DNA of 64,000 nucleotides from a candidate division FCPU426 bacterium (GCA_963840035.1 CAWIXE010000002.1:1280001-1344000); one strand, 5' to 3'; positions 31,661 through 63,156 are shown, counted from the first letter of the stretch. Made by a program: numbers and translations. Notes: generated by a model not told the origin, from the sequence alone.

Positions 31661-31732
31661 TAATCACAAATCCCAGATCCCAAAAAAAACGCAATTTGGG
31701 ACTTGGGACTTGGGACTTGGGACTTGTGATTA
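31661..31732. repeat. Inverted heptamer arrays (AAATCCC / GGGACTT family)
   Basis: taatcacaaatcccagatcccaaa ... tttggga cttggga cttggga cttggga cttgtgatta. Confidence 0.8.
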
Positions 31733-34747: not shown

Positions 34748-34758
34748 AGTCATCCTTT

Positions 34759-46273: not shown

Positions 46274-46358
46274 AAATTCGGATTTTCAATTTTAAATTTT
46301 CCATTTTCAATTTAAAGCGACTGTTGTTAATTGAAAATTCATAATCGAAAATTTAAAA

Positions 46359-47765
46359 TTAAAGCTCAACCTCCTCACCCGGTGCAGGGTTTGATACGTT
46401 CTTTAAGCCTATATGCGCTAAGGCGGCCATCAATTCCTCCTGCTGTCCTTCTTCGCCGTGGACCAGGAATACCTTTTTAAGCCTGCCTTCGCTCATGACA
46501 TCGGTGGCTTTTATGAATTTCATGAGTTCCTTCTGGCCTGCATGGCCGGAGAACTCATTTATGATCTTTACCTGGGCGTTAACAGCGTATGAATCGCCGA
46601 ATATCTTTATCTGCTTGTCGCCTTCCATTATCCTTCTTCCAAGGGTATTTACAGTCTGATAACCTACAATCAGCACCGTACAGCGCGGGTCGCCTATGTG
46701 GTTTTTCAGGTGGTGAAGGATCCTGCCCGCTTCGCACATTCCCTGTGCTGAGAGTATAATGCATGGTTTTTCATAATTATTTATAGCCTTGGATTCGTCG
46801 ACCGATTCCGTAAACCTCACAAGTTCAAGGTGAAACGGGTCATTGTTGTCTGCGATAAATTCAAGCATGGCGCTGTCAAAACATTCGGAATGGTTCTTAA
46901 AAACCTCGGTAACGTTGGTTGTCAGCGGCGAATCGACGAATACGGGCATGGGAGGTATTTTTTTATCGACGAAAAGCTTGTTCAGGACATAAAGGACTTC
47001 CTGCGCGCGCTCAACCGCGAATACCGGGATAATTATCTTACCACCCCTGTTATATGTCTCATTTACGACATTCGCCAGTTTTTGGTATGCCGCGCCCACC
47101 GGCTTATGGTCCCTGCCTCCGTATGTTGACTCCACTACCAGGTAATCGACATCCTTTATCTGGTCCGGATCGGTCAGTATCGGCAAACTCTTCCTGCCAA
47201 GGTCCCCGGTAAAACCTATCTTTATTTCACGGTCTTTATCCATCACCTTAACTATAACCATTGTCGAACCGAGTATGTGCCCGGCATTGATAAACCACAT
47301 ATCCATATCTTCCCTAAGCTGTATGTTCTCACCGAGATTTTTGGGGACAAACTGTTTTAAGGAGTCTTCAGCCTGCTCCACAGTATACAGAGGCTCAAAA
47401 AGTTTTTTGCCCTGCTTGAGCCTTTTTTTATTTACGTACTCAAGGTCCTTTAACTGGACAAAAGCCGAATCCGGGAGCATGAGCTTGCACAAATCCCTCG
47501 TGGCGTATGATGAGTATATAGAGCCTTTATAACCCTGTGCCGTGAGCGTGGGTATATTTCCGCTGTGGTCAATGTGCGCGTGCGTTAAGGCCACAGCGTT
47601 AATCTCAAGAGGATTGAGCGGAAAATGGCGGTTTCTCTCGTATGACTCTTTCCTTTTTCCCTGTATCATGCCGCAGTCAACAAGCAGCCTGAAACCGTCC
47701 TTTTCCAGGACATGCATTGATCCGGTGACTTCCCTTGCCGCGCCTAAAAACCTCAGTTTAACCAA
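46359..47765 (-). CDS. MBL-fold beta-CASP ribonuclease (YSH1-like)
   Basis: GAAREVTGS, THAHIDHSG, AGHILGS, FTGDLG, ESTYG, GMCEAGRILHHL, FSGHA, LVHGE. Confidence 0.92.
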   Translation of the reverse strand: MVKLRFLGAAREVTGSMHVLEKDGFRLLVDCGMIQGKRKESYERNRHFPLNPLEINAVALTHAHIDHSGNIPTLTAQGYKGSIYSSYATRDLCKLMLPDSAFVQLKDLEYVNKKRLKQGKKLFEPLYTVEQAEDSLKQFVPKNLGENIQLREDMDMWFINAGHILGSTMVIVKVMDKDREIKIGFTGDLGRKSLPILTDPDQIKDVDYLVVESTYGGRDHKPVGAAYQKLANVVNETYNRGGKIIIPVFAVERAQEVLYVLNKLFVDKKIPPMPVFVDSPLTTNVTEVFKNHSECFDSAMLEFIADNNDPFHLELVRFTESVDESKAINNYEKPCIILSAQGMCEAGRILHHLKNHIGDPRCTVLIVGYQTVNTLGRRIMEGDKQIKIFGDSYAVNAQVKIINEFSGHAGQKELMKFIKATDVMSEGRLKKVFLVHGEEGQQEELMAALAHIGLKNVSNPAPGEEVEL

Positions 47766-47775
47766 GAAATCACCC

Positions 47776-48750
47776 CTATAGTGAGAATATTTTATTCATA
47801 TTGTAGGCGTATGCGTCTATCTTTCTTTCCTTGCCGATGACGTCCTTCATGTCATGGCAGACCAAACCGCCGTATTGCATGCCAACCATCCGGCTCTGCC
47901 CTTTTTTAAGTTTTATAAGTTCCTTTACAGCAGAATAACCGAAGGTAAGCCCCAGTTTTCTGGATACCGCAGTCGGCGTCCCGCCCCTCTGTATATAGCC
48001 AAGAACGGTATACCTTGTTTCCATGCCCGTGGCCTTTTCAATTTTTTTGGCGAACTCGGATGAAAGCCCCACGCCTTCAGCCATAACTATTATGCAGCTG
48101 TTTTTGCCCCTTGCGATGCCATGATTGAGCGTTTTCGTGATACTCTTCATCGTAATGTCTTTTTTAAATTCAGGTATAAGAATCAGCTCCGCGCCGCCGG
48201 TCAAACCCACTTCAAGAGCCAGAAAGCCATGCTCCCTGCCCATGACTTCAACTATAAAAATACGCTCATGCGAAGCTGCCGTATCCCTGATCTTGTCTAT
48301 GGCATCAAGGCCGACATTTATCGCCGTGTCAAAACCTATTGTGTAATCAGTCCCATAAACATCATTGTCAATAGACGCCGGTATGAATGCCGAAGGTATC
48401 CCTGTTTCTTTTGTAATTGTATATAACCCAACCCGGGACCCGTCCCCGCCTATCGAGATAAGGCCGTCTATACCCCTGTCTTTCAGGTAGTCATACGCGA
48501 TCATCCTGACCTGTTTTTTATGGAAATCCTTTGACCTTACTGTCTGGAGTATTGTTCCTCCCCTGTTTATGATTCCTCCGACGCTCTTTAAATCCATGGG
48601 TATAAACTGGTTATGCAGCAGCCCGTGAAGGCCCTCTTCTATTCCGAATACTTCCAGGCCGTTTCCAATGGCAGTTCTGACGACCGCCCTGATGGCCGCG
48701 TTCATGCCGCAGGCATCGCCTCCGGTAGTCATTACAGCTATGCGTTTCAT
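47776..48750 (-). CDS. pfkA: 6-phosphofructokinase (probably ATP-dependent)
   Basis: GGDACGMNAAIRAVVR, GGTIL, IGGDGS, IDND, TIGFDTA, VEVMGR, LGYIQRGG. Confidence 0.93.
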   Translation of the reverse strand: MKRIAVMTTGGDACGMNAAIRAVVRTAIGNGLEVFGIEEGLHGLLHNQFIPMDLKSVGGIINRGGTILQTVRSKDFHKKQVRMIAYDYLKDRGIDGLISIGGDGSRVGLYTITKETGIPSAFIPASIDNDVYGTDYTIGFDTAINVGLDAIDKIRDTAASHERIFIVEVMGREHGFLALEVGLTGGAELILIPEFKKDITMKSITKTLNHGIARGKNSCIIVMAEGVGLSSEFAKKIEKATGMETRYTVLGYIQRGGTPTAVSRKLGLTFGYSAVKELIKLKKGQSRMVGMQYGGLVCHDMKDVIGKERKIDAYAYNMNKIFSL

Positions 48751-48783
48751 AAAATCTCCTTTCATATTTAAACAAAATTACCC

Positions 48784-48920: not shown

Positions 48921-49505
48921 CTAAATAGTCAAATGCTTGTTCTTTATCCACTTCCATATTTTTACCCGGAGCTGCTCGTCGTCCCTGGTCTCCCAGTACG
49001 ACGACGTATCCATGACTTCCAGGTCCTTGACATACCTTTTCTTGACATAATCAAGGAGTTTAACCACCTGGACGTGGTGCTCAAAATCCGCCGTTATGGT
49101 CTTAACAAAGGGGAAATACATGAATTCGTATTTTTTAACGCTGATTTTTTTAGTAAGGCCGGGCGCGTTGCTTGAGGTAAATATTATTGTGGAAAGCCTG
49201 CCGTTCCTGTCAAAAGTAAGTTTTACCGGTTCTTTATCCGGGGAAGGCTTGATTATGACTCCTTCAAGGTATACTTCGGAGCTGGAAAGCGCGAGGATTC
49301 CTTCTTCATCAGCCGACCCTTCGGTTCCATCGCCCGCAGCCGCTGTATCCGCCGTGATGTGCGTCCTTGCTGTCATTGACTGGAAATTTTCCTTTACAAT
49401 CTCATAACCCCAGCCGTTTATCCTGCAGATGTCGACAAACTCCTCAACAAGCTGGCTGATGGATTCTTTTCCCGCTATGGTCCCGTTATATTTTATATAT
49501 ATCAT
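48921..49505 (-). CDS. Hypothetical protein
   Basis: 194-aa ORF directly downstream of the Ton/PorV operon; no family recognised. Confidence 0.7.
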   Translation of the reverse strand: MIYIKYNGTIAGKESISQLVEEFVDICRINGWGYEIVKENFQSMTARTHITADTAAAGDGTEGSADEEGILALSSSEVYLEGVIIKPSPDKEPVKLTFDRNGRLSTIIFTSSNAPGLTKKISVKKYEFMYFPFVKTITADFEHHVQVVKLLDYVKKRYVKDLEVMDTSSYWETRDDEQLRVKIWKWIKNKHLTI

Positions 49506-49527: not shown

Positions 49528-50442
49528 TCAGCCGTTTATAATAAATACTATCCTGTAATTTTTCGGAAGGCTGTTGTCTATAAGCGCGTCCATCTTAAAA
49601 AATTCCTTCGGCACCTTAAGGTCGGCTTCAAAATACTTCTGGAACGTCCTTATCTGGTCCGCGGATATGCCCGCGTCCTCCGAGAATACCTGAATATTGA
49701 CCGGGAACCTGTTGTTCATTTTCATGAAGTCCTCTATCTCCTGCAGTATGGCCTTACCCGCGTCGGTAAGCCTTTCCTTTCTCTTCTCTTCAAACATGGA
49801 CTTGGATGAAACCTCTATTACCAGTTTACCGTCCCTGCGGTACTTTATGCCGTTTACTTCCTTGGGGGTTTCCCTGCGGACATTGCCGATATTTCCGGCT
49901 TTATCCTGATATGAAAGCAGGTACCAGTACGGCGACCCCATCTTAAGCATGCGGCCTTCCTTATCAAGCCCGTCCCACTTTATCTCCTGCGGCAGGTTCC
50001 CGTCGCCTTTCTGAAAATATACGGTTCCTCCCGTGGAATCTGTCACTTTAAAGGTCCATTTGTCCAGGTTAAAACCCGCCGGCATCTTGGGTGATATCTT
50101 AAACACAGGCGGTGATTCAAGAAAGCTCAAAGCAGGGTGATAATCAACCCTTTTTTCCGACATTGTATCCGGAAGGCTGGCCTTAACATCCTTTACATCT
50201 TCCGGTGAAATATTAAGAAAGGTTTCTTCTGTTGAAATTATACTCTGCGCTACTTCGTTCGCGTCTGTCTGTATTTCAATCTCGGGTTTTTCAGTCTCAA
50301 TTTTAATCTTAAGCTGGCCTTTTACCACGACTTCCTGTGAGGAGTCGCCCTGTCCCGCGGCAGGCTTATCCTCGCAAAATACCGCAGTTGTAAAAACAAA
50401 TAGAGATGCCGCTACCGCAGCCGAAATCAAATACTTTTTCAT
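49528..50442 (-). CDS. Exported protein: TonB-box-like N-terminus, FlgD-like Ig domain, degenerate OmpA-like C-terminus
   Basis: Signal peptide; QEVVVKG; WTFKVTD...IKWDGLDKEG...YQDKAGN; C-terminal MFE...LTDAGKAILQEI...NYRIVFII. Confidence 0.6.
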   Translation of the reverse strand: MKKYLISAAVAASLFVFTTAVFCEDKPAAGQGDSSQEVVVKGQLKIKIETEKPEIEIQTDANEVAQSIISTEETFLNISPEDVKDVKASLPDTMSEKRVDYHPALSFLESPPVFKISPKMPAGFNLDKWTFKVTDSTGGTVYFQKGDGNLPQEIKWDGLDKEGRMLKMGSPYWYLLSYQDKAGNIGNVRRETPKEVNGIKYRRDGKLVIEVSSKSMFEEKRKERLTDAGKAILQEIEDFMKMNNRFPVNIQVFSEDAGISADQIRTFQKYFEADLKVPKEFFKMDALIDNSLPKNYRIVFIING

Positions 50443-50448
50443 ATTACA

Positions 50449-51399
50449 TCACCTCGAAAGTTTATAAACAAATATAGCCGTTCCGGACTGGTCCTCTGAA
50501 CTCGATAATGGCGCGAACATGAACTGTACCAGCGCCTCTTTTGCCAGGTCATCAAGTTCCGGATACCCGGATGTTTTTTCTATATAAAGATTATCCTTAA
50601 CCGAACCGTCGGACCTTACGGTAAATGCCACGGCAACCTGGGCTTCTATGCCCTGTTCCTCGGCCCAGCGCGGATATATGGGCGAGGTCTTTCGCAGGAT
50701 CTGCCTGCCTGAAAGCTGGCCTGTAATAAGCAGGGCTGTGCCTTTTTCCTTTTTAATAACTATGTTTTCCTCAGCCTGCCTTTTAGGTTCCGGCGTCGGT
50801 TTTTCCAGCTTTGGGGCCATGGTCTTTAATCCGCTTCCGCCTTTTGCCATGGCGTCAGCGGATATGGCCGGCCTGTTTACAGGAAGGAAGCTGTTTGTCT
50901 TCGGCGCGTTAGCTGAAAGGTTTAACTTTGAAGGCCCCGCCGCCAGTTTCTTTTCATTATCAAGGGCCAGTTTCTGCTGTTCTATCATAGCCGGCGATAT
51001 CTTTTTCTTGCCTATTTCATTGTCAAGGTCCAGCGTTTTCATGTTTGGCTTTAAGGCGTCAAGCTTTGTCTTGTCAAGCGACAGGGCCTGGGGTTTTTTC
51101 AGGTCCATCTCCGGCTTTTTAAGGTCAAGCGCTTTGGGCTTGGCAAGTTCCAGCTGCTGGTTCTGCTTGATGGGTATAAGCTGCTTGAACATATCAAACA
51201 TTTTTTTCGGTTTTTCAAGTTCCATCGGCTTTTGCTCGTCCGGGATCTCCTCAAGCATGGTTATCTCGGTTAACTTGTAATCCTCCATCTTCTGCTTGTG
51301 CTGATAGCTTAAGAAAAGGAGGAATATGGCAACTTCGATGGTTATTGCGAAAAGGAACGAACCTGTTAACCCTTTTCTGTCAAAATCGCTTGCGAACAT
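50449..51399 (-). CDS. tonB: TonB-family energy transducer
   Basis: N-terminal TM, Lys/Pro-rich linker, C-terminal PIYPRWAEEQGIEAQVAVAFTVRSDGSV...TSGYPELDDLA. Confidence 0.85.
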   Translation of the reverse strand: MFASDFDRKGLTGSFLFAITIEVAIFLLFLSYQHKQKMEDYKLTEITMLEEIPDEQKPMELEKPKKMFDMFKQLIPIKQNQQLELAKPKALDLKKPEMDLKKPQALSLDKTKLDALKPNMKTLDLDNEIGKKKISPAMIEQQKLALDNEKKLAAGPSKLNLSANAPKTNSFLPVNRPAISADAMAKGGSGLKTMAPKLEKPTPEPKRQAEENIVIKKEKGTALLITGQLSGRQILRKTSPIYPRWAEEQGIEAQVAVAFTVRSDGSVKDNLYIEKTSGYPELDDLAKEALVQFMFAPLSSSEDQSGTAIFVYKLSR

Positions 51400-51418
51400 A
51401 TTTTAGTCTCCTTTTTAT

Positions 51419-51844
51419 TTATTTCATATTCTTTTTTGTCATAGTGGCAAAATATATCTTTTTGGGTTTTGCCTTCTTAATAACGTCCATAGCGTCGAGG
51501 ACCACGCCTTCCTGCACTCCCTCGTCCGCCTTTATGATGACCACGTGTTCCTCGGTCTTGACCAATTTCGTGGCCACCCACTGCTGAAGTTCCTTGTCGT
51601 TGCTAACTTCCTTTTCATTAACGGACATCTTTCCGTCCTTATCTATGGTTACCGTAACATGCTCTTCGTTTTTCGTCTCGTCCGTCATAGCCTTGGGCAG
51701 CGTCACCTCAAGCTTTGACTGTGTCATAAACGGGGTTGTTACCATGAATATGATAACAAGCACCAGCGAAACGTCCACAAGCGGTGTTACATTAATGTCT
51801 GTTATCGGCTCGTCTTCCCCGCCGCCTCCGGCTTTCATTGACAT
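51419..51844 (-). CDS. exbD: ExbD/TolR family protein (copy 2)
   Basis: DINVTPLVDVSLVLVIIFMVT, VTLPKA, IIKADEGV. Confidence 0.9.
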   Translation of the reverse strand: MSMKAGGGGEDEPITDINVTPLVDVSLVLVIIFMVTTPFMTQSKLEVTLPKAMTDETKNEEHVTVTIDKDGKMSVNEKEVSNDKELQQWVATKLVKTEEHVVIIKADEGVQEGVVLDAMDVIKKAKPKKIYFATMTKKNMK

Positions 51845-51862
51845 ATGGCCTTCCTCCTGATG

Positions 51863-52285
51863 TTATTCTTCAGCTTTTTGTACTTTATCCTGCCTCATGA
51901 TAGAAAGTGTCTTTGCTCCCGCCATTTTCGCGGTATCAAGGACCCAGACAAGCCTGCCGTGCGTGGCATCCCTGTCGGATGTTACCATGCAAAGCTTCTT
52001 TTTATTGGCGGCCATGGCCGACTTTAAAGCCTCAATCTCTGTCCCGGCCTGGACCTTTTTATTGTTTATAAAAAGGGCGTTCGCCGTTATCCTCACCTGT
52101 ACGGCTTCGTCTTTTGTCGACTTTCCGACAGACTCGGTTACCTTGGATGAGTTTACTATAATACCCGACTGCACGACCATCGGCGCCGTTACCATGAATA
52201 TGATAACCAGCACGAGCGATATGTCGACGAGCGGGGTGACGTTAATGTCTGTTATTGCTGATTCTTCATCCGCGCTTCCTGCCAC
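51863..52285 (-). CDS. exbD: ExbD/TolR family protein (copy 1)
   Basis: GTG start at 52285 after GGGAGG; DINVTPLVDISLVLVIIFMVTAP, SDRDATHG. Confidence 0.88.
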   Translation of the reverse strand: MAGSADEESAITDINVTPLVDISLVLVIIFMVTAPMVVQSGIIVNSSKVTESVGKSTKDEAVQVRITANALFINNKKVQAGTEIEALKSAMAANKKKLCMVTSDRDATHGRLVWVLDTAKMAGAKTLSIMRQDKVQKAEE

Positions 52286-52919
52286 TTGCGCCCTCCCCGT
52301 AATTTGCCAGAAGAACCAGCAGTTTTTTTGAAACCGCGTCCATCTCAACCGATATGGTCTTTACTTTTTTCATATATATATTAAAAATAATAACCGCCGG
52401 AATGGCGACCGCAAGGCCCGCAGCCGTGGCAATCAGGGCTTCCGCGATGCCGACCATGACAACTTCAGGGCCGCCGCCTGCTGACGACGCGAGGTCCTTA
52501 AACGCCTTGATGATACCCAGAACGGTTCCGAGCAGCCCGATGAACGGCGATGTGTTTCCGAGCGTTCCCAGGATGTCTAAGTACCTGTCCAGGTTAAGCC
52601 TTTCTTCCATCCTTTTGGCTTCCATTAACTTGTCATTTTCTTCCCTGGGGAACTGCCTGTTTTCCAGGCCGAAGCGCACCACTGCGGCCACGTTTCCCTT
52701 AAACGTCTTGCAGTATTCGACAGCCTCTTTGTAAGCTCCGTCAACTATGAAACCCTTTATTTTCTCCATGAAAGAATCAGAGTCGAGTTTTGTCTTCTGG
52801 AAATAGATCCACCTTTCGACCGATATTGCGACAACCACGACCGAGAGCAACAACATGAGAACTATAACCCAGCTGGACCTTAGGACTTGTAATACGTCAA
52901 TTGAATAAGCATTTTCCAT
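52266..52919 (-). CDS. exbB: MotA/TolQ/ExbB proton channel
   Basis: TSPFIGLLGTVLGIIKAF, GIAEALIATAAGLAVAIPA. Confidence 0.9.
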   Translation of the reverse strand: MENAYSIDVLQVLRSSWVIVLMLLLSVVVVAISVERWIYFQKTKLDSDSFMEKIKGFIVDGAYKEAVEYCKTFKGNVAAVVRFGLENRQFPREENDKLMEAKRMEERLNLDRYLDILGTLGNTSPFIGLLGTVLGIIKAFKDLASSAGGGPEVVMVGIAEALIATAAGLAVAIPAVIIFNIYMKKVKTISVEMDAVSKKLLVLLANYGEGASGRKRG

Positions 52920-52954
52920 TCTGTAAGTTCCTCCTTCAAGTTTAGTATATTTTT

Positions 52955-55900
52955 TTACTTGCTTTTTTCTTCCTTTTTATCGTCTGTATTCTTCGCCGGC
53001 GCCTTAAATAGGTCCGGATACGCGCTCTTTATCTCCTCTTTCCTTGCCGCGGCCGCTGTCACATACTCTTTCTGGCCACCACTTACAGCCACTTCTTCAT
53101 ATGCCGCGACAGCGCCCTTCCAGTCAGACTTTCCCTCACAAATGGTCGCGAGGTTAATCAGCCCGGATACCCTGAATATGGAATCCTTGGGCTGGGCTTT
53201 GAACAGCTGTGTTAATGTCTGTATTGCCATTTCAGGATTTTCCAGGGTGGTGTATATGTCGCCTGCCCTGTACATGGCCTCGGTTTTAATCGCGTCATTG
53301 GCCCCATTTACCGCCAGCGCCGCGTATTCAGCGAGGGCGTCCTTATATCTTTTGGCCTCCAGGTACATACCCGCTATCTGGAGCGCTATGTCATTTGACT
53401 TTGGGTCCTTGGGAAATGTCTTTGCAAAAAGTTTATATACCCGGATGGCTTCATCCTGCTTGCCTGATTCCCCGTATGCCAGGGCCAGGTTATACATGGC
53501 GTTTGTTTCGTATTCCGTTCCCGGATACTGCTGGATAATCCTCTCATAATAGAATATCGCGTCAGGATAACTCTTGGACATGTAGGCCGCCGTCGCCAGC
53601 CTGAAAGTCACGTCTGAAGCAAGTTCGTGTTTGGGGTAATTTTTAATAAAAGCCTTGTACGCGGCAACCGCTTCCGCCATCTGCTGAAGGCCTTCGTAAC
53701 AGGCGCCCACATAGTAATGCGCGTTTACTGCCATGGTGTCGTTCGGGAACTGCTCTATGAGCTTATTGAACGCGTCGATTGATTCCTTATACTTATTTTC
53801 GGTGTAATAGGTCTCGGCGGCCTTATACAGCGCGTTAACCGCGAGGTTGCTGTCCGGATATTTGTTATAGTACTCCAAAAGTGCTTTGGGGTCGTTGGTC
53901 TTTTCCGCCTTTTTATAAGTAGCCCTCTGCATTCCCTCTTCCACGCTTGTAACCTTATTGGAATCCGGATATTTCGTCATGAACCTTTTATAAGCGTCCA
54001 CTGCTTTTGCTTCCTGGTCCGAGTTGTAATAAACCTCGGCTATAGATAGCATGGCGTCTTCTGCCGTGTCTGTCTTCGGGTACTTGTCCAGTATTTCCTG
54101 GAATCCCGCGAGTGATTTTTCAAACTGCTGGGCTTTAAAATAAATATCAGACATCTTATAAAGCGCCTCAGCCGCCCTCTTGGACTTCGGGTACCTGCTG
54201 GCCAGGATCTGCCATGACTTTATGGCGTCATTATAAAATTCCTGCGTTTCAAAGACCCTTCCCTGCTGAAATAACGCCTCTGCCGTAGGTTCGAAATCCT
54301 TGTCCTTTTCATGGGCATACGCGAACTCGCCGTACTTGGCCGATGCCTTGTCATATTCCTTTTCACTGAAATATGAGTGGGCTATTAAAATGTCGCAGGC
54401 TTTCTTTACCTGGTCATTTGCCAGCGCGCTTGATACGACATCCTTTGCCATGGTCCTGGCACCGCGGTAGTTCTCAAGCTCATAATAGCACCATGCCAGG
54501 TTAGCCCTGGACTCAGTGACTATATCGCTGTCATAATAAACATCCACTATCTGCTGAAATGACTTTGCGGCAAGGCCGTACATGCCTGACTTAATGTAGG
54601 ATTTTCCGAGGTAATAATAAGCCCTTGCCCTGACCTTCGGGTTTGGCGCCTGGTATTTATCCGAAAGCGTGCCGAGCGTCATGGCCGCCTCATTAATAAG
54701 GAGGCTGTACTGCTGCTGGTCATAATAGCACAGCTCAATCATGAGCATGGCAGCGTCTGTCAGCCCTGAAAAGCCCACCTTATCTATTATATACTTGTAC
54801 GCCTCCACAGCCGGGCCGTATTGCTTAAGTTTGTAATCAGCCGTTCCCAGCAGGTAATATCCCAGCGGCAGGTTCTCATGTGTCACAAATTTTTCAACAA
54901 AAGACCTTAATACTCCCTGTGCCTTTTCGTACTTGCCCTGGGTCACATAGCACCAGCCGGCTTTAACCAGCCCTGAAGCATATACGTCATATATGTCCGG
55001 ATACGCAGCCATGAGTTTCTCATAAGCCGCGAGCGCCTGGTCATATTTCTTCAGCTGAAGGAAACACTCCGCGATCAGGTACTGGGCAAAAGCCTTAACC
55101 TTTTTATCCCCGGTCCCGTCCATGACCTGCTTGTATACCGCGGCTGCCGCCTCATATTTTTTGTCTTTAAATAATGCCGCGCCGCGTTTGTATATGGCGT
55201 AAGGAGCGAGGCTGCTTGTCGGGAATGTATTAATGAAGTTCAGATAATCAGCGGCAGCTACAGGATAGTTAAACGACTTGTAAAAAGCCTCTGCTTTGTT
55301 ATACATGGCGCTTTCATAATATTTTGATTTTTTCGCGTCAGCGCCCTCGCCCACATTTTTAAAGGCCTCCGCAGCCTCAGGATATTTATTCTGCTTTAAA
55401 AGGCTGTGCGCCAAATAATAATATGAGGCGTCTGATTTTAATGTTTTCAGCTTTGCCGCCGCGTCCTCGTACCTTTTCAGGTAAAAATCAATAAGGCCGC
55501 CGATGAACCTGACATTATCATCTTTGGTATAGTACGGATATTTTGCCAGAAAGTCGGAAAGCTCCCTGTCCGCCTTCTTGTAATCGGTAAGGTTCAGGTA
55601 TGAAAGCGATATGCCGTAGACTGCCTCCATTATAAAAAGGCTGTTTGTGTATTTGAAGCGGAACCTGGTCCAGTCATCAATGGCCTCGGAGTACTTGCCC
55701 ATGTTGTAATCCGCTTCGCCGAGCTTATACATGGCGCTGTCGGCAAAGGCGGTGGATGAAAAATCATCGGATAATTTCTTAAAAGTATCATAGGCCGGCG
55801 CGTATTTCTTCCCTTCATAGAGCGCCTCGCCTTTTAAGTACATAATCCTCGCCGACTCAAGCTTGCTTGTATCCTTCCACCTGGCTGTGAAGCCGTCCAT

Positions 55901-56068
55901 CTTGGCGATGGTATCATCGGCAAGCGGGGCCGCCTTATACGCGTCCAGCACAAGGTTCAGGTTCTTCTGCAGTTCCTTGTCGTCATCAGCCCTGGAATTC
56001 ACAGGCATGGTTGCGCATCCCACAAGAAAAGCCAAAAATGTCACTACCGCGAGTATTCTTTTCATCAT
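52955..56068 (-). CDS. Very long TPR lipoprotein (BamD/CpoB-type repeats)
   Basis: Lipobox LVGC; about 20 or more TPRs ending in YPxS/FPxx motifs. Confidence 0.85.
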   Translation of the reverse strand: MMKRILAVVTFLAFLVGCATMPVNSRADDDKELQKNLNLVLDAYKAAPLADDTIAKMDGFTARWKDTSKLESARIMYLKGEALYEGKKYAPAYDTFKKLSDDFSSTAFADSAMYKLGEADYNMGKYSEAIDDWTRFRFKYTNSLFIMEAVYGISLSYLNLTDYKKADRELSDFLAKYPYYTKDDNVRFIGGLIDFYLKRYEDAAAKLKTLKSDASYYYLAHSLLKQNKYPEAAEAFKNVGEGADAKKSKYYESAMYNKAEAFYKSFNYPVAAADYLNFINTFPTSSLAPYAIYKRGAALFKDKKYEAAAAVYKQVMDGTGDKKVKAFAQYLIAECFLQLKKYDQALAAYEKLMAAYPDIYDVYASGLVKAGWCYVTQGKYEKAQGVLRSFVEKFVTHENLPLGYYLLGTADYKLKQYGPAVEAYKYIIDKVGFSGLTDAAMLMIELCYYDQQQYSLLINEAAMTLGTLSDKYQAPNPKVRARAYYYLGKSYIKSGMYGLAAKSFQQIVDVYYDSDIVTESRANLAWCYYELENYRGARTMAKDVVSSALANDQVKKACDILIAHSYFSEKEYDKASAKYGEFAYAHEKDKDFEPTAEALFQQGRVFETQEFYNDAIKSWQILASRYPKSKRAAEALYKMSDIYFKAQQFEKSLAGFQEILDKYPKTDTAEDAMLSIAEVYYNSDQEAKAVDAYKRFMTKYPDSNKVTSVEEGMQRATYKKAEKTNDPKALLEYYNKYPDSNLAVNALYKAAETYYTENKYKESIDAFNKLIEQFPNDTMAVNAHYYVGACYEGLQQMAEAVAAYKAFIKNYPKHELASDVTFRLATAAYMSKSYPDAIFYYERIIQQYPGTEYETNAMYNLALAYGESGKQDEAIRVYKLFAKTFPKDPKSNDIALQIAGMYLEAKRYKDALAEYAALAVNGANDAIKTEAMYRAGDIYTTLENPEMAIQTLTQLFKAQPKDSIFRVSGLINLATICEGKSDWKGAVAAYEEVAVSGGQKEYVTAAAARKEEIKSAYPDLFKAPAKNTDDKKEEKSK

Positions 56069-56211
56069 TTATTGTCCTCACCTTTGAATGAATTTTCAAT
56101 TTTACATTTTCAATTTTCAATTAAAAAAAAGCGCCAACCGGCACTTTAATAAAGTCCCTGTTTTTCAGCCTTCAATTTAAAATTGAAAATTCAAAATTTA
56201 AAATCGTTTTA

Positions 56212-57450
56212 TTATTCTTCCAGCTTTATGGATCCCGGCGACATCGGTATGGAGCTTGATATCTTTACCGTTTCCTTGCCGGATTCAATGACCTTTTTAT
56301 TTTTATCGATTACCTTCATGACGAGCTTGTATTCCCCGTCGCCTGACGGCAGTCCCCTGTCGTCTTTTCCGTCCCAAATAATCGATGCCGGCGGATTATC
56401 ATCGCCGCTGTATGTCCTTACGACGTCGCCGTCCTCATTGAATATATTCAGTTCCCATTCATTAATAGTGTATTTTGTAACCGCGTATATTGATATGGTG
56501 GTGTTTTTCTTCATGCCAACCGGCGAGAACATGGAAGGTTCAGCCTTTAAATTAATGTCAAAACCGCCGTAGAGCAGCGTTACCGATACCCTGTGCGCTA
56601 ACCCAAGTTCCTGCATGGCAATAGAATAGTCAACCTTAACCGGCTTTAAAAAATAGCCTATACCGAAGGTGTATTCAGACTCATCAATCCCCGCCCTTAA
56701 AGCAAGGTCCTGTATGGGGAAAGCCTCAAGACCCATCCTGAACTTAAGCTCTTTTTTAGACAATTCCTGCTCAAAATCAATTACTGGTATGATCCTGTCC
56801 CCCAGGAATTTAAAAGCAATACCGCCCCTTATAATAATGGGAAAAGACTCCGATGTCTGGTTGAGTTTAACAGACGCCGGTACTGCGTTTATAACTGAAA
56901 GCCCGAAGCTGAAAAAATCCGAAGGCACAAAAAGAAATCCCACGTCAAGCCCGTATCCCATGGCATTCTTGTCATATACCGATTCGCTGATGAGTTTTAA
57001 GTTCGCTCCGGCGCTGAGCCATGACGTGATATCCCTGGCATATGAGATTATATATGCCTGGTTTGTAACCGCAAAATTGCCTGTCCCCGGAGATTCCCAT
57101 AATCCGTTACGGGGATCAAAACCCGTGGTGCGAAGGCTCACAAACGAACCCGCAAAAGTGCCTATGCCCGAGACCGGATATGTAACAGCCGCAAAATCAT
57201 ACATCGTGTCATAAAATAATACAACGTGCTGCAGTGTTACCTGCAGTGGGTTTTGCAGGGCAAGCCCGGCCGGGTTGTAATAAACAGCCGAAGGATCGTC
57301 CGCCAGTCCCGTAAATGCCCTTCCCATCCCAAGCGACCTGGCGCCGGCGCCCCAGTTTAAAAACTCTCCGGGCGTCCCGTAATCGCCTTTTGCAAAGGCA
57401 AAAGACACGGCCGTCAGCAGGGCCAGCAGTATTAAAGACACTCTTTTCAT
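56212..57450 (-). CDS. PorV/PorQ-like (FadL-fold) outer-membrane barrel with C-terminal FlgD-like Ig domain
   Basis: Signal peptide; GAGARSLGMGRAFTGLADDPSAVYYNPAGL; LALRAG, VDYS...LGLAHRVSV; then FSP...WELNI...WDGKDDRG...DGEY. GGAGG RBS precedes ATG 57450. Confidence 0.8.
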   Translation of the reverse strand: MKRVSLILLALLTAVSFAFAKGDYGTPGEFLNWGAGARSLGMGRAFTGLADDPSAVYYNPAGLALQNPLQVTLQHVVLFYDTMYDFAAVTYPVSGIGTFAGSFVSLRTTGFDPRNGLWESPGTGNFAVTNQAYIISYARDITSWLSAGANLKLISESVYDKNAMGYGLDVGFLFVPSDFFSFGLSVINAVPASVKLNQTSESFPIIIRGGIAFKFLGDRIIPVIDFEQELSKKELKFRMGLEAFPIQDLALRAGIDESEYTFGIGYFLKPVKVDYSIAMQELGLAHRVSVTLLYGGFDINLKAEPSMFSPVGMKKNTTISIYAVTKYTINEWELNIFNEDGDVVRTYSGDDNPPASIIWDGKDDRGLPSGDGEYKLVMKVIDKNKKVIESGKETVKISSSIPMSPGSIKLEE

Positions 57451-57570
57451 AAATACCTCCGAATTAATTTTATATTTTACATTTTCAATTTTCAATTAAA
57501 AACACAAGCAAGCATGTTACATCCACGCCTGTCGCAATGAATCGAAAATTTAAAATTAAAAATTCAAAAT

Positions 57571-60500
57571 TTACTTCTGTACAGCGATCTTCCTAGCCAG
57601 TTTCTTCTTTGACCCGCCAAAAACAGCCTCAACCACGCAGATGTAGCCGCCGTTTCCGACAACTTCGCCTTTAGTGTTTTTGCCGTCCCAGTCAAATATG
57701 TTGACCTGGCCGCCAATAGCCCCGGCAGAGCCTGACATGATATCCTTGCTGTAAACCGCATCACCAAACAGCGAATAAATCCTGACCTTAACATCGCTGG
57801 AAGAATCAAGCAAATATGTTATGTGCGTAACCTCAGCCCCGGCCCTGAACGGGTTCGGGTAATTTGAAACCTGGTTTTCAGCCGGTTCCGCAAGTGAAAC
57901 ATTTACCGTCACATACCTGTATGTGCCGTTATACGCGGCCCTTATCAGGCATGATTCATTTGTAAGCCCGCCGTAAAATATTACCGAAGAGTCGCCGCCG
58001 GCGTTTGTCGACGCGCTGGCATTTTTCGTAAGGCCGCTGAATGTGCCGCTTCCTTTTATAACCGAGAAGCTGACATTAACGCCGCTTACAAAATTACCGT
58101 TTCCATCCACAACATTTCCGATGATATCATCGGCGGCATTTGCCCTTATATTCGGCCTGGACGCCCTTGCCGTAAATGTCACGGCATTCGGGTTTGCGCC
58201 GACTATAATGACCGGACACGGCGCTATATTATAAGATGGTAAAAGCGGTACCGAGCCCGTAACTTTAAGCCTCATGCTTCCGGAGGAGGTATACTGCATA
58301 TCGGCAATTTCCAGTTCCCCATTTACGACATTACCGCCCGGGAACGCTATCCCGGTCGAGTATAATAATGAGCCTGGCGCGTTCACGCTGGAATCAACTG
58401 GCACGGTCAGCGCCGGCGTCAGGTTAAAACTGTCATTTGAAGAGTATACCGGGTTATTTGAAACAGTGTCATTGACCTGCACTCGCACCCTAAATGTGGC
58501 GGGCGCCGCAAGGACATTGACAGTTTCAAGGCCGGTGAGCCTTCCGACCCATTCATTTTTGGATGTATCCCATACCTGAATGGCATAATATTTCTGATCT
58601 CCTACTATGGTCTTGATTGTGGCCGCCGTTGACTTAAGCGGATTGGAAGACGCGGTATCCGCAACATTCAATCCGACAGCCGTATAATATGTCACCAGGA
58701 AATTAGCCTGGAAATAGGCCGTACCTGTCGCCGGATTTATGGATACCAATTTCGGGTATGTAGGGCCGGTATTGTCCTCAGGTATTGATCCGTCATTTAC
58801 CCCTCCCGCGTAAAAACTTAATATCGCGCTTGAGCCCAAAGTAAAATTACCGAATTTATCGCAAGCCTGCGCTGATACCGGGAATGGCGCTCCATTGGTC
58901 TGGGTCCTTGCCACTCCGGAAATTCCGTTATACCATGTTGACGGGCCCCTCATGCCGCCTGAACCGCCTATTGGATAAAGCCCGGGCACCAGAACCTGAA
59001 GCCCGTATGAATCTCCAGGTATGGTCGTAAAAGTCATGCCGTTTGCCTGTAAACTAAAGGGTTCAATCGCGGGGCTTGATACATCCGCTTTTACCCACAT
59101 GCCAGGCGCGGCAGTATGGAATATGACATTAGTATGTACCTCACCGTCGGAAGCCGGAATTGTCGTCCTGGTTACAGGCACGCCGTAAATATCATTTGTG
59201 GTCACTGTCAGTGTATATCCGCTTAAGTCAGGGTAAGGCGTCTGAACTTTGTTTCCGTAAAGGTCGCAGGCCATAACCAGGAAGTCAGTCCCTGCGGGGT
59301 TATGGCTAACGTTATCATCGTTCACAGATACCTCAAAAGTCGGGTTAAACGGGCTTAAGTCCGGATTATACATGAGGAATGTGTTGTTATTCGGACCGCT
59401 GTATACGCCGGGGTCCGCATCCATTCCGGAAGCGATTATGAGCAGCCTTTTAAACACATTCGCAACCGTGGCTATGTCCGCGCTCCTGCCGTTTGGCGTT
59501 CCGAAGTTTGCGGTTATATACGCTTCAAACTCACCGCCCTTAAATATCTTTGTGCTGATTGTCGCTTCACCGTTGACAAGCGCGTACGCTGTCGGCGACA
59601 TGGTATTAGCGCCTGTCTGGCATTGAAGCGTTATAGGTTTGCTGAAAGGCTTTCCCACGTTCCAGCCATTATCGTGCACATTATCCCACTCGTCCATGGC
59701 CTTAACCACTATGTTAAACGGCTCGCCCGCGGTTACAGGCGTAACCGGCGCGTCGACGGTAAAATGGTGAAGTGTGTCATTATGATAAACGTGTATAGGG
59801 TCTGTCGTAAAATTATTTGCATAACCGCCGTCAGCCGTAACAGTCCTTAAGCCCGTAGTTCCGACCGTCTTTAAAACCATGTCCGAGAAAATAGCCCCTC
59901 CCGCAGTAAGAGACACGGTCCGGCTCAAGTCTATGCCGCCCAGCGACGCCCTGGGGTCAGATGAAGAAATGGTAACCGAATTTGACCCGAGATTGAAACA
60001 TCTGTTAAAAAACTCGTCAACAATCATTACATTCATGGTTGAGTTTGTGCCGGCCATTACATACTTGGGGTTTTTATTTATGTCATATCCCTTTATGTCG
60101 CTGGCCTGTATTCCGTCAGCGAAAGGCGATATGCCCGGCATGTGCTCCATCCCCTCAAAAATAATAAGGGTGCCTTTGGGCGCCGCCGGCACCAGGTTAA
60201 ATGAATTGCTCGGAATCGGCGTCATGTTGCCAAATGCCACGCTGAAGGTAATCTGCCCGCCCATCCATATCGGGGTGCTCTGGGACGCCCTGTACATGGT
60301 AACTTCAAAAACCGCCAGGCCTTTGGTAAACAACGGCGACTTAACCGGGTAAATACAAGGAAGGTCCGGGTAATTATTTGAAGCCGCAAGATTGACGTCG
60401 AAATTATTAAAACCCATCAGTATCTGGCCGTTTGAATCAACCGCCGTGATGGAAACCATGAACGGCACTCCCGCTGTCTGCGCGCCTATCGGCCCTCCTG

Positions 60501-63156
60501 ACGTGGTTGTTATCATAAAACCATACACGTCAAAGATGGATACCGGCTGGCTTGTGTCAGACGCAATTCCGCTGGCGTTTGTGGAAGCCGTTATGATATA
60601 TGAATTTGACGGCGAACCGCATTTTATCGTAAACGTCCTTGTCCCTGACGAGAGGTTTCTCGTCGTTGGAAGTGACCCTGTGCCGTCGATATTGGAATTT
60701 CCGTTATTTGAAGTGGTTACCGTGAACTGCTGTGTCGCTGTAGTCACGACGTTATAATAATCATCGCACATATTTACCCTGACAGTAAAATTCTGGCTTA
60801 TGCCCTGCCCTGTCGGGGTGCCGGTCTCGCCCAGCGTGGTTCCCGGCCTTGCTGTAACTCCCGGTACTATGACCTGGAACTTTTTAGGGGTGGAGCCGGC
60901 CGTAACCGTGACAAAACTGCTGAAACCCACATGGCCCGTAAACGAGACCATGTTCGGCGTATCGTTAAAGCTATCGCTTACAAAAAGCTGCGCTGTCTGC
61001 GTGCCCGCCCTGTAAAAACGGGCTATCAAATCCGCCCTTTCACCCTGCGCCGTGAATGTGACAGCCCATTTGTATGAATACTGCCCGGTGGTGTCCTGAA
61101 CGCTCGCGGTGGATGTAACGTCAATGGTCGACGCGTTAGGCAGCGTGTAATCAAGGTTGCTTGAAACATACACCACACCCGTATAATCGGTCTTCACATT
61201 GCCAAACTGGTCCCTGGCCCTGATTACGGGATTAAATGAAGCGCCCGCGGCCCTGGAAGACGGCATGCCGCCTATCTCAAAATACGCGACATTTCCCGCG
61301 CTTACAGATATGGTGTCAGTATAATCATTTGAATTGCCTGAAACTATGCCGGGATTAGTGGAATCAGCGGCTGAAATAGTCCGCGTGCCCACGCCGACCG
61401 AAAAAGTCCTGAAAATAAAGTGACACTGGGATTTACCTTCGGCAAGCGCGATGGTAAACGGGACCGGCGATGAATTGACCGTTGCGCTTAAATCGCTGGA
61501 ATCTATGACCACGTTATCCGTAACCGTATCTATAATATTCCCGAAGTAATCCGTGGCGTATACATCAAACGTAAAATCCTGCCCGACCGTCTGCGCGTCA
61601 GCCCCGGGCACCTTCCCAAAGGTTGTTTTGCTTCCGGCATCGTGGGCATCTCCGGGGGCCAGCAGCAAGATTTTGCTTAATGTACCGGCCAATACGTCAA
61701 AACTGTTTGTCGCGCCTTTTTTATTTGAATCAGAATCATCGGCCACGAGTATGGCCGCGGAAAATACTTTTTTGAAGATATAAAGCCTTATGCTGGCTAT
61801 GCCGCTTATACCGTTAAACGTACCGCCTGAGAAATCCCACTTATCCGTACTAAGCAAAGTTCCTCCGGGATAACCGCCCGTATACACGGAAACATCCACG
61901 GGCCCCGCATACGACGTAACCGTATTTTCATATAAATCCCTCGCGGATACTAAGGCTGTTATTTCCTGCTCTGTATTCACGGTTGAAATGGTATTTACGA
62001 CCTTGAAGTGGTCAATGGTGCTAAATGTCATCGGCGCGGTATCAATGTCATCTGCGGCAATGGCGGGTACATGGGAAACAGTAATATTTTGAGCGCCTGC
62101 GCCCACGGTCTTTAAAGTTATTGTAGTGGTCGCAACGCCTGATGACAGGGCCACCACAACCGGGGTAAACTGAGGATCTGCCGACGTTATGGAAACATTG
62201 CCTGTTATGGCGGTGTTAGTGTTCCAGTATGCGTCGCAGGCTATGATATTAACGCTAAACGGCGTTCCCGCTGTCCTCTGAGTCATGGCCTCGCTAACTG
62301 ACACCCTTCCGTTGCCGGTGGCTGTGCCGGGCAAATATGTCTGTCCGGGCCCTATAATCAGGAGCCTCGGCGAACTTGCATTAGCGTCAACTGAAAATCC
62401 TCCGGCGGTACTGGGCGATGTTAACGAAAGCGCCGGATACGAACAGTAAAAAGTCACCTTCTGCCCCGCTGCTGTCGCATCATAAAGGACTACGGGCACA
62501 TTAACCGCCACTCCCGCCGTAAATGTCACATTGCCGAGGTTCACGGTTATGTTCTGGCCGCCATACACGGCTGTAAGCGACGCTATACCGTAAAAACTCG
62601 TAACCGCCGCCGCGCCTGAATCCTGCGCGGTAACGCTTATGTTAAAAGATGTCCCCGCTGTTTTATTTGTGGTAAGCGCGCAAAAAGTAAACTGGTTTAT
62701 TTTTTGGGTTGTTATCGTAACAGAACCCGGCTGTATGCCCACTGATGTGGGCAGGTTATTCGCGTATAATCCCACCGCCCCGTTTACTACCGCCGAACTT
62801 ATGGTCGCCTGAATAATTTTCTTTGAGTTTAACACAGGTGTCGCCGATGAATTCGGGCTTGATAAATTAACCGTGGTCGGATCGGGTGAATACGCCACAG
62901 TCTGGCTGGCTGACAAATCAAGATCTGAAGCGCTTGTATTCACAGGTTCATTTGTTAAATCATTAATGGCATAAACAGTCACATTAAATGGCACTCCCGA
63001 GGTCTGCGGATTTGGAGCCCCGCCTTTTACCCCCGCCGGATTCCATGTCTCACCCGGCGCCACAAGCAAGTACCTGGTCGCCCCAAAAGCCGGTATCGCC
63101 AGAATAATAATAAGGAAAATAGAAAAAATGACTTTTTTGGTTATTTTTAAACCCAT
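57571..63156 (-). CDS. Giant (1861 aa) secreted Ig-like repeat protein with invasin-type Big_1 module and T9SS/FlgD-like C-terminal domain
   Basis: Signal peptide; recurrent AGxPFxVxVxAxDxxxN motifs; VVDGNGNFVSGVNVSF; C-terminal NYPNPF...VRIYSLFG...WDGKNTKG.VVGNGGY...KIAVQK. Confidence 0.8.
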   Translation of the reverse strand: MGLKITKKVIFSIFLIIILAIPAFGATRYLLVAPGETWNPAGVKGGAPNPQTSGVPFNVTVYAINDLTNEPVNTSASDLDLSASQTVAYSPDPTTVNLSSPNSSATPVLNSKKIIQATISSAVVNGAVGLYANNLPTSVGIQPGSVTITTQKINQFTFCALTTNKTAGTSFNISVTAQDSGAAAVTSFYGIASLTAVYGGQNITVNLGNVTFTAGVAVNVPVVLYDATAAGQKVTFYCSYPALSLTSPSTAGGFSVDANASSPRLLIIGPGQTYLPGTATGNGRVSVSEAMTQRTAGTPFSVNIIACDAYWNTNTAITGNVSITSADPQFTPVVVALSSGVATTTITLKTVGAGAQNITVSHVPAIAADDIDTAPMTFSTIDHFKVVNTISTVNTEQEITALVSARDLYENTVTSYAGPVDVSVYTGGYPGGTLLSTDKWDFSGGTFNGISGIASIRLYIFKKVFSAAILVADDSDSNKKGATNSFDVLAGTLSKILLLAPGDAHDAGSKTTFGKVPGADAQTVGQDFTFDVYATDYFGNIIDTVTDNVVIDSSDLSATVNSSPVPFTIALAEGKSQCHFIFRTFSVGVGTRTISAADSTNPGIVSGNSNDYTDTISVSAGNVAYFEIGGMPSSRAAGASFNPVIRARDQFGNVKTDYTGVVYVSSNLDYTLPNASTIDVTSTASVQDTTGQYSYKWAVTFTAQGERADLIARFYRAGTQTAQLFVSDSFNDTPNMVSFTGHVGFSSFVTVTAGSTPKKFQVIVPGVTARPGTTLGETGTPTGQGISQNFTVRVNMCDDYYNVVTTATQQFTVTTSNNGNSNIDGTGSLPTTRNLSSGTRTFTIKCGSPSNSYIITASTNASGIASDTSQPVSIFDVYGFMITTTSGGPIGAQTAGVPFMVSITAVDSNGQILMGFNNFDVNLAASNNYPDLPCIYPVKSPLFTKGLAVFEVTMYRASQSTPIWMGGQITFSVAFGNMTPIPSNSFNLVPAAPKGTLIIFEGMEHMPGISPFADGIQASDIKGYDINKNPKYVMAGTNSTMNVMIVDEFFNRCFNLGSNSVTISSSDPRASLGGIDLSRTVSLTAGGAIFSDMVLKTVGTTGLRTVTADGGYANNFTTDPIHVYHNDTLHHFTVDAPVTPVTAGEPFNIVVKAMDEWDNVHDNGWNVGKPFSKPITLQCQTGANTMSPTAYALVNGEATISTKIFKGGEFEAYITANFGTPNGRSADIATVANVFKRLLIIASGMDADPGVYSGPNNNTFLMYNPDLSPFNPTFEVSVNDDNVSHNPAGTDFLVMACDLYGNKVQTPYPDLSGYTLTVTTNDIYGVPVTRTTIPASDGEVHTNVIFHTAAPGMWVKADVSSPAIEPFSLQANGMTFTTIPGDSYGLQVLVPGLYPIGGSGGMRGPSTWYNGISGVARTQTNGAPFPVSAQACDKFGNFTLGSSAILSFYAGGVNDGSIPEDNTGPTYPKLVSINPATGTAYFQANFLVTYYTAVGLNVADTASSNPLKSTAATIKTIVGDQKYYAIQVWDTSKNEWVGRLTGLETVNVLAAPATFRVRVQVNDTVSNNPVYSSNDSFNLTPALTVPVDSSVNAPGSLLYSTGIAFPGGNVVNGELEIADMQYTSSGSMRLKVTGSVPLLPSYNIAPCPVIIVGANPNAVTFTARASRPNIRANAADDIIGNVVDGNGNFVSGVNVSFSVIKGSGTFSGLTKNASASTNAGGDSSVIFYGGLTNESCLIRAAYNGTYRYVTVNVSLAEPAENQVSNYPNPFRAGAEVTHITYLLDSSSDVKVRIYSLFGDAVYSKDIMSGSAGAIGGQVNIFDWDGKNTKGEVVGNGGYICVVEAVFGGSKKKLARKIAVQK

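Follow-up and report, generated by a model that had tools for sequence, protein, structure and literature searches.

The system for type IX secretion (T9SS) has been assigned to the Fibrobacteres-Chlorobi-Bacteroidetes (FCB) group (PMC11205867), and GldLM is regarded as its power source (PMC11205867, PMC10994853). In Flavobacterium johnsoniae, the step that requires energy is reported to be the pulling of the loaded carrier off SprA, the force reaches the carriers from the periplasm, and the same chain moves carrier-bound adhesins (PMC10994853). In this species, genes for type B cargo are paired with the gene for the cognate carrier (PMC12618676), a layout also present in the locus investigated here. 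The DNA analysed is a stretch of 64,000 nucleotides (nt) from a candidate division FCPU426 bacterium (GCA_963840035.1, CAWIXE010000002.1:1280001-1344000), referred to as the window. At window positions 49528-63156, eight open reading frames (ORFs) were called, all on the minus strand, encoding in order a giant cargo protein with a C-terminal sorting domain (CTD), a PorV-family barrel, a giant tetratricopeptide repeat (TPR) protein, ExbB, two ExbD proteins, TonB, and an exported protein, here called X. The intergenic gaps from the cargo gene to X are 120, 143, 35, -20, 18, 19, and 6 nt, bearing out the single co-oriented, tightly spaced operon of the preliminary description. The reading preferred here, with a probability of roughly 45 %, is that a Ton/Tol-type proton motor has been co-inherited with one carrier and one giant T9SS-tagged protein, as a dedicated module that would reposition the adhesin after export.

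Each of the closest described systems shares part of this make-up. The Bacteroidota T9SS likewise combines a SprA-like giant barrel with carriers of the PorV family, many secreted enzymes that bear type A-like CTDs, and a periplasmic TPR protein, however GldL, GldM, GldN, and PorU were not detected in the window's genome, which has 40 carriers, half of them paired with a cargo gene, rather than one PorV, and in which a Ton/Tol motor is linked to one carrier with a predicted periplasmic immunoglobulin-like (Ig) domain. The mobile SprB-SprF and the static PorE-PorP-cargo systems also have the carrier gene directly behind the gene for a large repeat adhesin (PMC12618676). Type B PorP/SprF systems have a partner with TPR and OmpA-like parts, which here are separate proteins, and differ from the operon in its type A-like CTD, its PorV-family carrier, and its own motor. 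With Tol-Pal the operon has in common a 5:2 motor with a transducer, a likely soluble periplasmic box-protein target, an OmpA-like domain, and a TPR partner (PMC12204202); unlike Tol-Pal it has neither a TolB propeller nor a lipoprotein Pal, it is patchy in distribution, and it includes two ExbD/TolR proteins, a TPR protein of 1000 aa, and both a barrel and a surface protein. The Agl-Glt machinery of Myxococcus (AglRQS with GltC/D/E/G) combines one TolQ, two TolR, a TonB-like transducer, a giant TPR protein, and an adhesin-presenting barrel (PMC3169522, PMC11761067), and the correspondence in layout that had been proposed for the operon holds at the family level. In contrast to Agl-Glt, the operon has no FHA or cytoplasmic platform, its barrel is of a different family, and its adhesin export would be of the T9SS type, the likeness to agl/glt genes being at the family level; Pfam and NCBIfam searches of the operon gave no match to FHA, Glt-type (GltA/B/H/K), or CglB proteins. 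The Ton system with TonB-dependent receptors (TBDRs) shares ExbB-ExbD-TonB and a TonB-box-like motif, whereas here the box is on a soluble protein and there is no 22-stranded receptor in the operon. In coupling a motor to an adhesin carrier, the operon would resemble SprB-SprF or Agl-Glt, and in its use of a soluble box protein it would resemble Tol-Pal, yet some defining features of each are absent; we infer its function as that of a variant within the Ton/Tol force transducers. No paper on the operon or on a Ton-powered T9SS was found in a literature search that had supplements and most subscription papers outside its range; among the former, those of PMC12204202 and PMC3169522 list loci that may bear on novelty. 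In a term search, the main text of the paper on cellulose-degrading Goldbacteria (PMC7031533) contained neither T9SS nor TonB.

Comparisons between genomes show that the operon is real and conserved across several phyla. The window's genome (G000) is 3.46 Mb in 3 contigs and 98.3 % complete; the order of the organism is, we take it, the Goldbacteria, and the records of its close relatives are labelled Ca. Firestonebacteria. There were 72 loci anchored on X, 51 of which have at least 8.5 kb upstream and were used to tally gene order. The full eight-gene order is present in 30 of these 51, the order from the barrel to X in 34, and TPR-ExbB-ExbD-ExbD-TonB-X in 45. These counts are descriptive, as the genomes were chosen through X or PorV matches and are related to each other. 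Two duplicate loci (L043 and L044, of L040 and L008) were left out of the tally and of the tree below, although they are within the 61 X sequences used later, and L008, with frameshifted genes, is outside the 30. Of 99 genomes of the phylum, 43 have an X orthologue (E<1e-30). Full-length matches were obtained with 14 of 50 genomes of other lineages, and 11 of 81 genomes of an Elusimicrobiota sample have X at E<=1e-35. Besides the Firestonebacteria, the full or the barrel-to-X order is found in records labelled WOR-3, Eisenbacteria, Krumholzibacteriota (in which the operon is divided between two contigs), and Fibrobacteraceae, and in four genomes of the Elusimicrobiota sample. The linkage of the Ton genes to the PorV gene is conserved across phyla, a point that the preliminary description had asked to be checked. 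On the order tally, the barrel tree, and the co-occurrence of barrel and X, the possibility that a cargo-carrier pair lies beside a Ton cluster by chance was rejected. Neither a canonical T9SS elsewhere in the genome with no conserved Ton-PorV linkage nor a FadL-like barrel, the two outcomes named in the preliminary description as pointing away from its proposal, was found. Separately, two families have a second copy of the operon (L032-L036) with a divergent barrel, preceded by an ORF of 165-175 aa, a protein of 1500-1900 aa with no clear CTD, and another PorV gene.

The barrel (PorVF; 56212-57450, minus strand) has 412 aa from its ATG and is a 14-stranded carrier barrel of the PorV family. 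It scores 106.5 bits against the PorV/PorQ family model NF033709 (cut-off 90) and 14.6 bits against the FadL profile PF03349, under the cut-off of 29.7. Its AlphaFold2 model (pLDDT, the predicted local distance difference test, 79.7) has 14 strands, hatch helices at the N-terminus, and, set apart, a beta domain at the C-terminus. In Foldseek, PorV structures are first and second (8GL6_F, E 1.4e-9; 6H3I_F, E 4.3e-9), with FadL/TodX at about 1e-6, whereas searching the sequences of solved structures with the barrel profile returned FlgD-like matches alone and no PorV. With PorV ahead of FadL by profile and fold, identity as a FadL porin was rejected, in agreement with the PorV-like barrel first proposed. 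The beta domain after strand 14 is a FlgD-like Ig domain (56260-56559, minus strand; PF13860, above cut-off), which on the topology of the barrel would lie on the periplasmic side and is predicted to serve as a handle.

Among the 40 PorV-family genes of the window's genome (42 matches before merging), 21 lie directly behind a CTD gene, while CTD genes make up 3.5 % of all genes. In a FastTree phylogeny of barrel regions alone from 159 PorV-family sequences, 36 of 38 motor-linked barrels fall on one side of a branch with Shimodaira-Hasegawa (SH) support of 99, and the five second-copy barrels fall outside this clade. A barrel of the motor-linked type is present in 17 of 29 genomes with X and in 1 of 51 without it, using a threshold of 245 bits, with coverage of the Ig domain required, that was set after the scores had been viewed, up to 22 scored candidates per genome, and G219, with a weak X match, counted as X-negative. 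The motor module tracks one carrier clade and, as described below, one adhesin family. At two loci (L135 and L173), the motor module adjoins a protein of repeated FlgD-like domains in place of the barrel. This points to the Ig domain as the handle and to an output that can be swapped.

The cargo gene (57571-63156, minus strand) encodes 1861 aa with a signal peptide and Ig-like repeats of about 240 aa. Pfam identifies FlgD_ig at the C-terminus alone, with no catalytic or carbohydrate-binding domain, and its Atlas neighbours are unnamed or Ig-like; the protein is probably a surface adhesin or stalk. It is orthologous across phyla through the repeats, beyond the CTD alone, and the same repeat family is found in the operon-bearing lineages. 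The CTD (YPNP...KIAVQK; 57574-57885, minus strand) is type A-like. A family profile (A7) of the last 104 residues matches the CTDs of PorU (6ZA2, E 6e-9), PorZ (5M11), and 8GLJ_D, the last solved within a T9SS complex, and 29 of 30 members of the CTD family match TIGR04183 at E<=0.01, the CTD of the window's own cargo being under the cut-off (19.5 against 23). The YPNP domain noted at the outset is homologous to type A CTDs. With a profile of the YPNP tails of the genome itself, about 98 CTD proteins were identified, the count that the preliminary description had asked for. Glycoside hydrolase (GH) domains (GH5, 8, 9, 16, 26, 30, 44, and 129) are present in 14 of 19 hand-picked CTD proteins, and the organism's cellulases appear to use the same export route. 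Two further CTD proteins are encoded within the window (31730-37893, minus strand), a GH44 protein of 1007 aa and a CBM35-GH26-propeller protein of 1044 aa. Elsewhere in the genome, anti-sigma-like proteins with a CTD-like end adjoin PorV genes (contig C1:101534-102475 and C2:331455-332420).

A SprA-like ORF of 2165 aa is encoded about 950 kb from the operon (C2:374859-381356). It matches TIGR04189 in four segments with 188 bits (E 1.5e-55), below the cut-off of 200, which orthologues in related genomes exceed. There is no profile match to GldL, GldM, or GldN in the window's genome, and for GldK there are three weak partial matches alone (27-35 bits against a cut-off of 350). PorU (PF01364) was not found in G000 or G089, but was found in G032, G129, and the control G170. 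The genome-wide search that had been suggested thus gave a SprA-like protein, 40 PorV-family genes, and the CTD proteins, with no GldL/M/N or PorU. The comparison was extended to a panel of 80 genomes, 74 test genomes and six GldM-positive Bacteroidota controls. SprA-like genes are present in 79 of the 80, while GldL and GldN were detected in none of the 74 test genomes and in all six controls, remote homologues below profile detection being possible. SprA, PorV-family carriers, and CTD cargo occur together in 73 of the 74 test genomes, covering about ten lineages, with no detectable GldL/GldN; one X-positive bin (G102) gave no SprA match. The records with SprA and no detectable GldL/GldN are labelled Zixibacteria, Ignavibacteria, Calditrichota, Cloacimonadota, KSB1, WOR-3, TA06, Eisenbacteria, Krumholzibacteriota, Elusimicrobiota, and Firestonebacteria.

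Some further features of the sprA loci were observed. In 11 of 21 neighbourhoods (L179-L198), sprA adjoins, or is within two genes of, a divergent LptF/LptG-like pair, presumably of the family named YjgP/YjgQ. In Firestonebacteria, the next gene is often a CTD protein with fibronectin type III (FN3) repeats, and SprA of the window's genome itself has FN3-like repeats at the N-terminus. Behind sprA in this genome (C2:381378-384589; L123), the FN3-repeat CTD gene has an in-frame stop, giving ORFs of 818 and 250 aa.

Four genes encode the motor. ExbB (52266-52919, minus strand; 217 aa) is a proton channel subunit of the ExbB/TolQ type (PF01618, E 1e-30) with conserved transmembrane (TM) motifs. 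The two ExbD/TolR proteins (51863-52285, 140 aa, with a GTG start, and 51419-51844, 141 aa; both minus strand, PF02472) retain the TM Asp, as do 126 of 133 ExbD from operon loci; this residue is reported to be essential in Escherichia coli (bioRxiv 10.1101/2022.09.26.509584). TonB (50449-51399, minus strand; 316 aa) is a TonB-type force transducer, matching PF03544 and TIGR01352 above cut-off, with about 10 cytoplasmic residues and no FHA domain. ExbB, both ExbD, and TonB_C are above the Pfam cut-offs; against NCBIfam models, ExbB and ExbD score higher with TolQ/TolR than with ExbB/ExbD, all under cut-off. Pfam identified no TBDR in the operon and no 22-stranded plugged receptor is linked to it, as had been stated; five PF00593 matches are found elsewhere in the genome. 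The exported TPR protein (52955-56068, minus strand; 1037 aa) was recognized by TPR Pfam models and TIGR02795 repeats, carries CpoB/YbgF-type repeats, and has a weak match, under cut-off, to the PorW/SprE model. It had been called a lipoprotein, and the window's copy does have a lipobox-like LVGC, but such a motif occurs in 5 of 49 orthologues, and a conserved lipoprotein was rejected; the protein is best read as a soluble periplasmic scaffold.

A paralogous cluster is present in the window's genome (C3:78759-85217; L124), encoding a TPR protein of about 980 aa, a TBDR-like barrel of about 570 aa whose N-terminus is TonB-box-like and which leaves little space for a plug, ExbB, ExbD, and TonB. 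The cluster also occurs in many relatives that do not have the operon (L148, L150, L151, L153, L154, L155, L158, and L159), and is a candidate for a more general role.

Protein X (49528-50442, minus strand; 304 aa) has a signal peptide, a linker, helices, a FlgD-like Ig domain, and a degenerate OmpA-like domain, and is not a lipoprotein. The AlphaFold2 model (pLDDT 81.6) shows a low-confidence or disordered linker followed by the folded parts, and Foldseek gives OmpA/MotB-like and FlgD matches. Both the Ig and the OmpA-like part that had been described are therefore present by fold, although Pfam gives a weak FlgD_ig alone, missing PF00691, and the binding Arg of the OmpA part is mostly absent. 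The Ig and OmpA half of X matches, with E down to 7e-21, the tails of PorV-Ig-OmpA fusions encoded in the same genome, which retain canonical OmpA motifs; therefore the barrel and X look like one such fusion cut into two proteins. These fusions of PorV barrels to FlgD-like Ig and canonical OmpA domains (C1:345821, C1:296089, C1:1103358, C2:365328, and C2:988870) are carriers with built-in periplasmic anchors, and other PorV paralogues have TPR or FN3 tails.

Directly behind the linker, X has a TonB-box-like motif, EVVVKG (residues 37-42; 50317-50334, minus strand), which is conserved in the alignment of X homologues (A1). A regular expression for such boxes matched 53 of 61 X homologues, against 7 of 98 cargo and 2 of 40 PorV proteins; its pattern is presumably that of TonB-dependent receptors and was tuned after the alignment had been viewed. 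In addition, the N-terminal profile of X matches the N-terminal box of the TBDR-like barrel of the paralogous cluster over 24 columns (score 25.7, E 4e-4, probability 36 %), with controls from seven other families and 60 shuffles scoring 10.5 or less; four loci with wrong ORFs (L154, L161, L162, and L164) were left out. On the motif and this match, X is the best candidate for the target of TonB. One X variant (L027, in G012) has 659 aa, with a long C-terminal extension.

In the mechanism that is proposed, Sec would take the cargo across the inner membrane, the SprA-like pore would let it through the outer one, and the CTD of the cargo would bind the cognate barrel, whose gene comes next in the operon. 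Because there is no PorU, the CTD would be left uncut and the cargo would remain displayed on the barrel. ExbB and the two ExbDs would convert proton flow into a pull on TonB, and TonB, through its C-domain, would engage the TonB box of X in the way that TolA engages TolB, and not a receptor plug. X and the TPR scaffold would then transmit the pull to the barrel's periplasmic Ig domain, with X in the role that, in other PorV paralogues, falls to a fused Ig-OmpA part as a fixed wall anchor. Repeated pulling and releasing would move the pair of carrier and adhesin within the outer membrane or put it under tension. The contacts between TonB and X, between X or the TPR protein and the barrel, and between the barrel and the CTD are those we infer from this arrangement.

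A number of observations do not favour this mechanism. In the second-copy operon of two families, the barrel is divergent and its gene does not directly follow a CTD gene. Two WOR-3 barrels lie outside the motor clade and six barrels with no adjacent motor lie inside it. Of the 29 genomes with X, 12, most of them Elusimicrobiota, have the six-gene motor module without a motor-type barrel, and therefore the carrier is not the only output of the module. The OmpA-like domain of X mostly has no peptidoglycan-binding Arg (Gln in 30 of 52, Arg in 12 of 52), and TonB boxes are short, low-information motifs. Finally, alignment and codons show that TonB of the window has A18-x3-E22 (A-I-T-I-E) where relatives have S/T-x3-H, a motif matched by regular expression in 62 of 67 homologues. 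The TM His is reported to be needed in E. coli TonB, with Asn able to substitute (bioRxiv 10.1101/2022.09.26.509584), and this copy may be impaired or weakened. An assembly slip is unlikely to explain the change from His to Glu, as two base changes would be required.

A broader reading, which is doubtful, is that of a second way of energising surface machinery of the T9SS type, in the phyla with SprA and PorV and without GldLM. ExbB-ExbD2-TonB would hold on to a soluble adaptor with a TonB box and haul a CTD adhesin with its carrier either off the translocon or along the cell, in the latter case as an engine for surface motility that has not been described, for example on cellulose in Goldbacteria-type bacteria.

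The operon could instead be a Tol-Pal-like envelope machine, in which the motor cycles X so as to tether or constrict the outer membrane, the barrel and cargo being an anchor point or a passenger. X would combine a TolB-type box and a Pal-like domain in one chain, and the barrel-less motor modules of part of the Elusimicrobiota sample, the CpoB/YbgF-type repeats, the higher TolQ/TolR scores of ExbB and ExbD (all below cut-off), and the lack of a TolB above cut-off in the window's genome are consistent with this. It is unlikely, however, since an occurrence in 43 of 99 genomes of the phylum and 11 of 81 of the Elusimicrobiota sample is patchy for a housekeeping role, the operon has no beta-propeller or lipoprotein Pal, G129 has both an above-cut-off TolB and the operon, and the wall-binding residues of X are degenerate.

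Surface motility of the whole cell, with the adhesin driven along the cell to move it over solids such as cellulose, as by Agl-Glt with CglB or by GldLM with SprB-SprF, is quite unlikely. AglRQS-GltG-GltD likewise combines one ExbB and two ExbD with a TonB-like protein and a giant TPR protein (PMC3169522, PMC11761067), and a giant cargo of non-catalytic repeats together with its cognate carrier is reminiscent of SprB-SprF. Yet TonB, with its short cytoplasmic part, has no FHA domain, there is no NCBIfam match named Agl or Glt and no GltA/B/H/K-type gene in the operon, the Agl-Glt core by itself is described as thought insufficient for movement (PMC11761067), and the window's genome has flagellar genes.

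Likewise, a general substitute motor, by which the Ton module would extract all loaded PorV carriers from SprA in place of GldLM/PorLM, is improbable. In its favour are the presence of SprA-like genes in 79 of 80 genomes with GldL/GldN only in the six Bacteroidota controls, the energy cost of carrier extraction reported for F. johnsoniae (PMC10994853), and the weak match of the TPR protein to PorW/SprE. However, the 73 genomes with SprA and without GldL/GldN divide into 37 with X and 36 without it. The latter have no ExbB orthologue (their best scores reach about 200 bits at the most, where orthologues score 280-300; the exception is G138, with 247) and no motor-type barrel (exception G135). 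Many of them are incomplete bins, and several are 96-99 % complete in 1-30 contigs. In 18 ExbB neighbourhoods from X-negative genomes, X is in none and the paralogous TPR-barrel-ExbB-ExbD-TonB cluster is in eight. Neither exbB nor exbD is in any of the 21 sprA neighbourhoods, and the module is linked to one of 40 carriers. On the panel distribution, the ExbB scores, and the sprA neighbourhoods, a general T9SS motor was rejected, and with it the suggestion that the Ton module exports CTD proteins generally in genomes without PorLM; of the original wording, by which the system exports or moves CTD-tagged proteins, the moving of one such protein fits better than the exporting of all. As half of the SprA genomes without GldL/GldN export without the module, its job is likely to come after export. 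The ExbB of G138 (L145) is near the operon's type and lies with two ExbD and an upstream TonB-like gene, with no X or TPR gene nearby.

An unusual TonB-dependent uptake, in which TonB would act via X to open the hatch in a barrel of the FadL class while the giant protein collects substrate, is highly improbable. Import is the usual job of Ton motors, PorV and FadL share a fold, and the organism is rich in glycoside hydrolases. However, both profile and fold place the barrel nearer PorV than FadL, no catalytic or carbohydrate-binding domain was identified in the cargo, and true TBDRs with their own ExbBD-TonB are encoded elsewhere in the genome.

A scan of the operon for promoters and terminators gave nothing decisive. 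A short A/T-rich element of TTGAAAAT repeats is present at window positions 57451-57495, 56070-56120, and 46270-46360; it recurs between genes throughout the genome, and generates false TTG starts and promoter-like matches. Behind X are a 194-aa ORF of no known family (48921-49505, minus strand) and a phosphofructokinase-like gene (47776-48765, minus strand). ORFs of equal length follow X across the order to which the genome belongs, and not in other lineages.

The genomes with SprA, PorV, and CTD proteins in which GldL/GldN were not detectable raise the question of what powers the energy-requiring step. The operon offers a small and concrete set of contacts, TonB with X, X or the TPR protein with the barrel, and the barrel with the CTD, that can be assayed with recombinant proteins and with no need for culture. 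If the dedicated repositioning module proposed here is true, another output would be added to the 5:2 Ton/Tol/Mot motor family.

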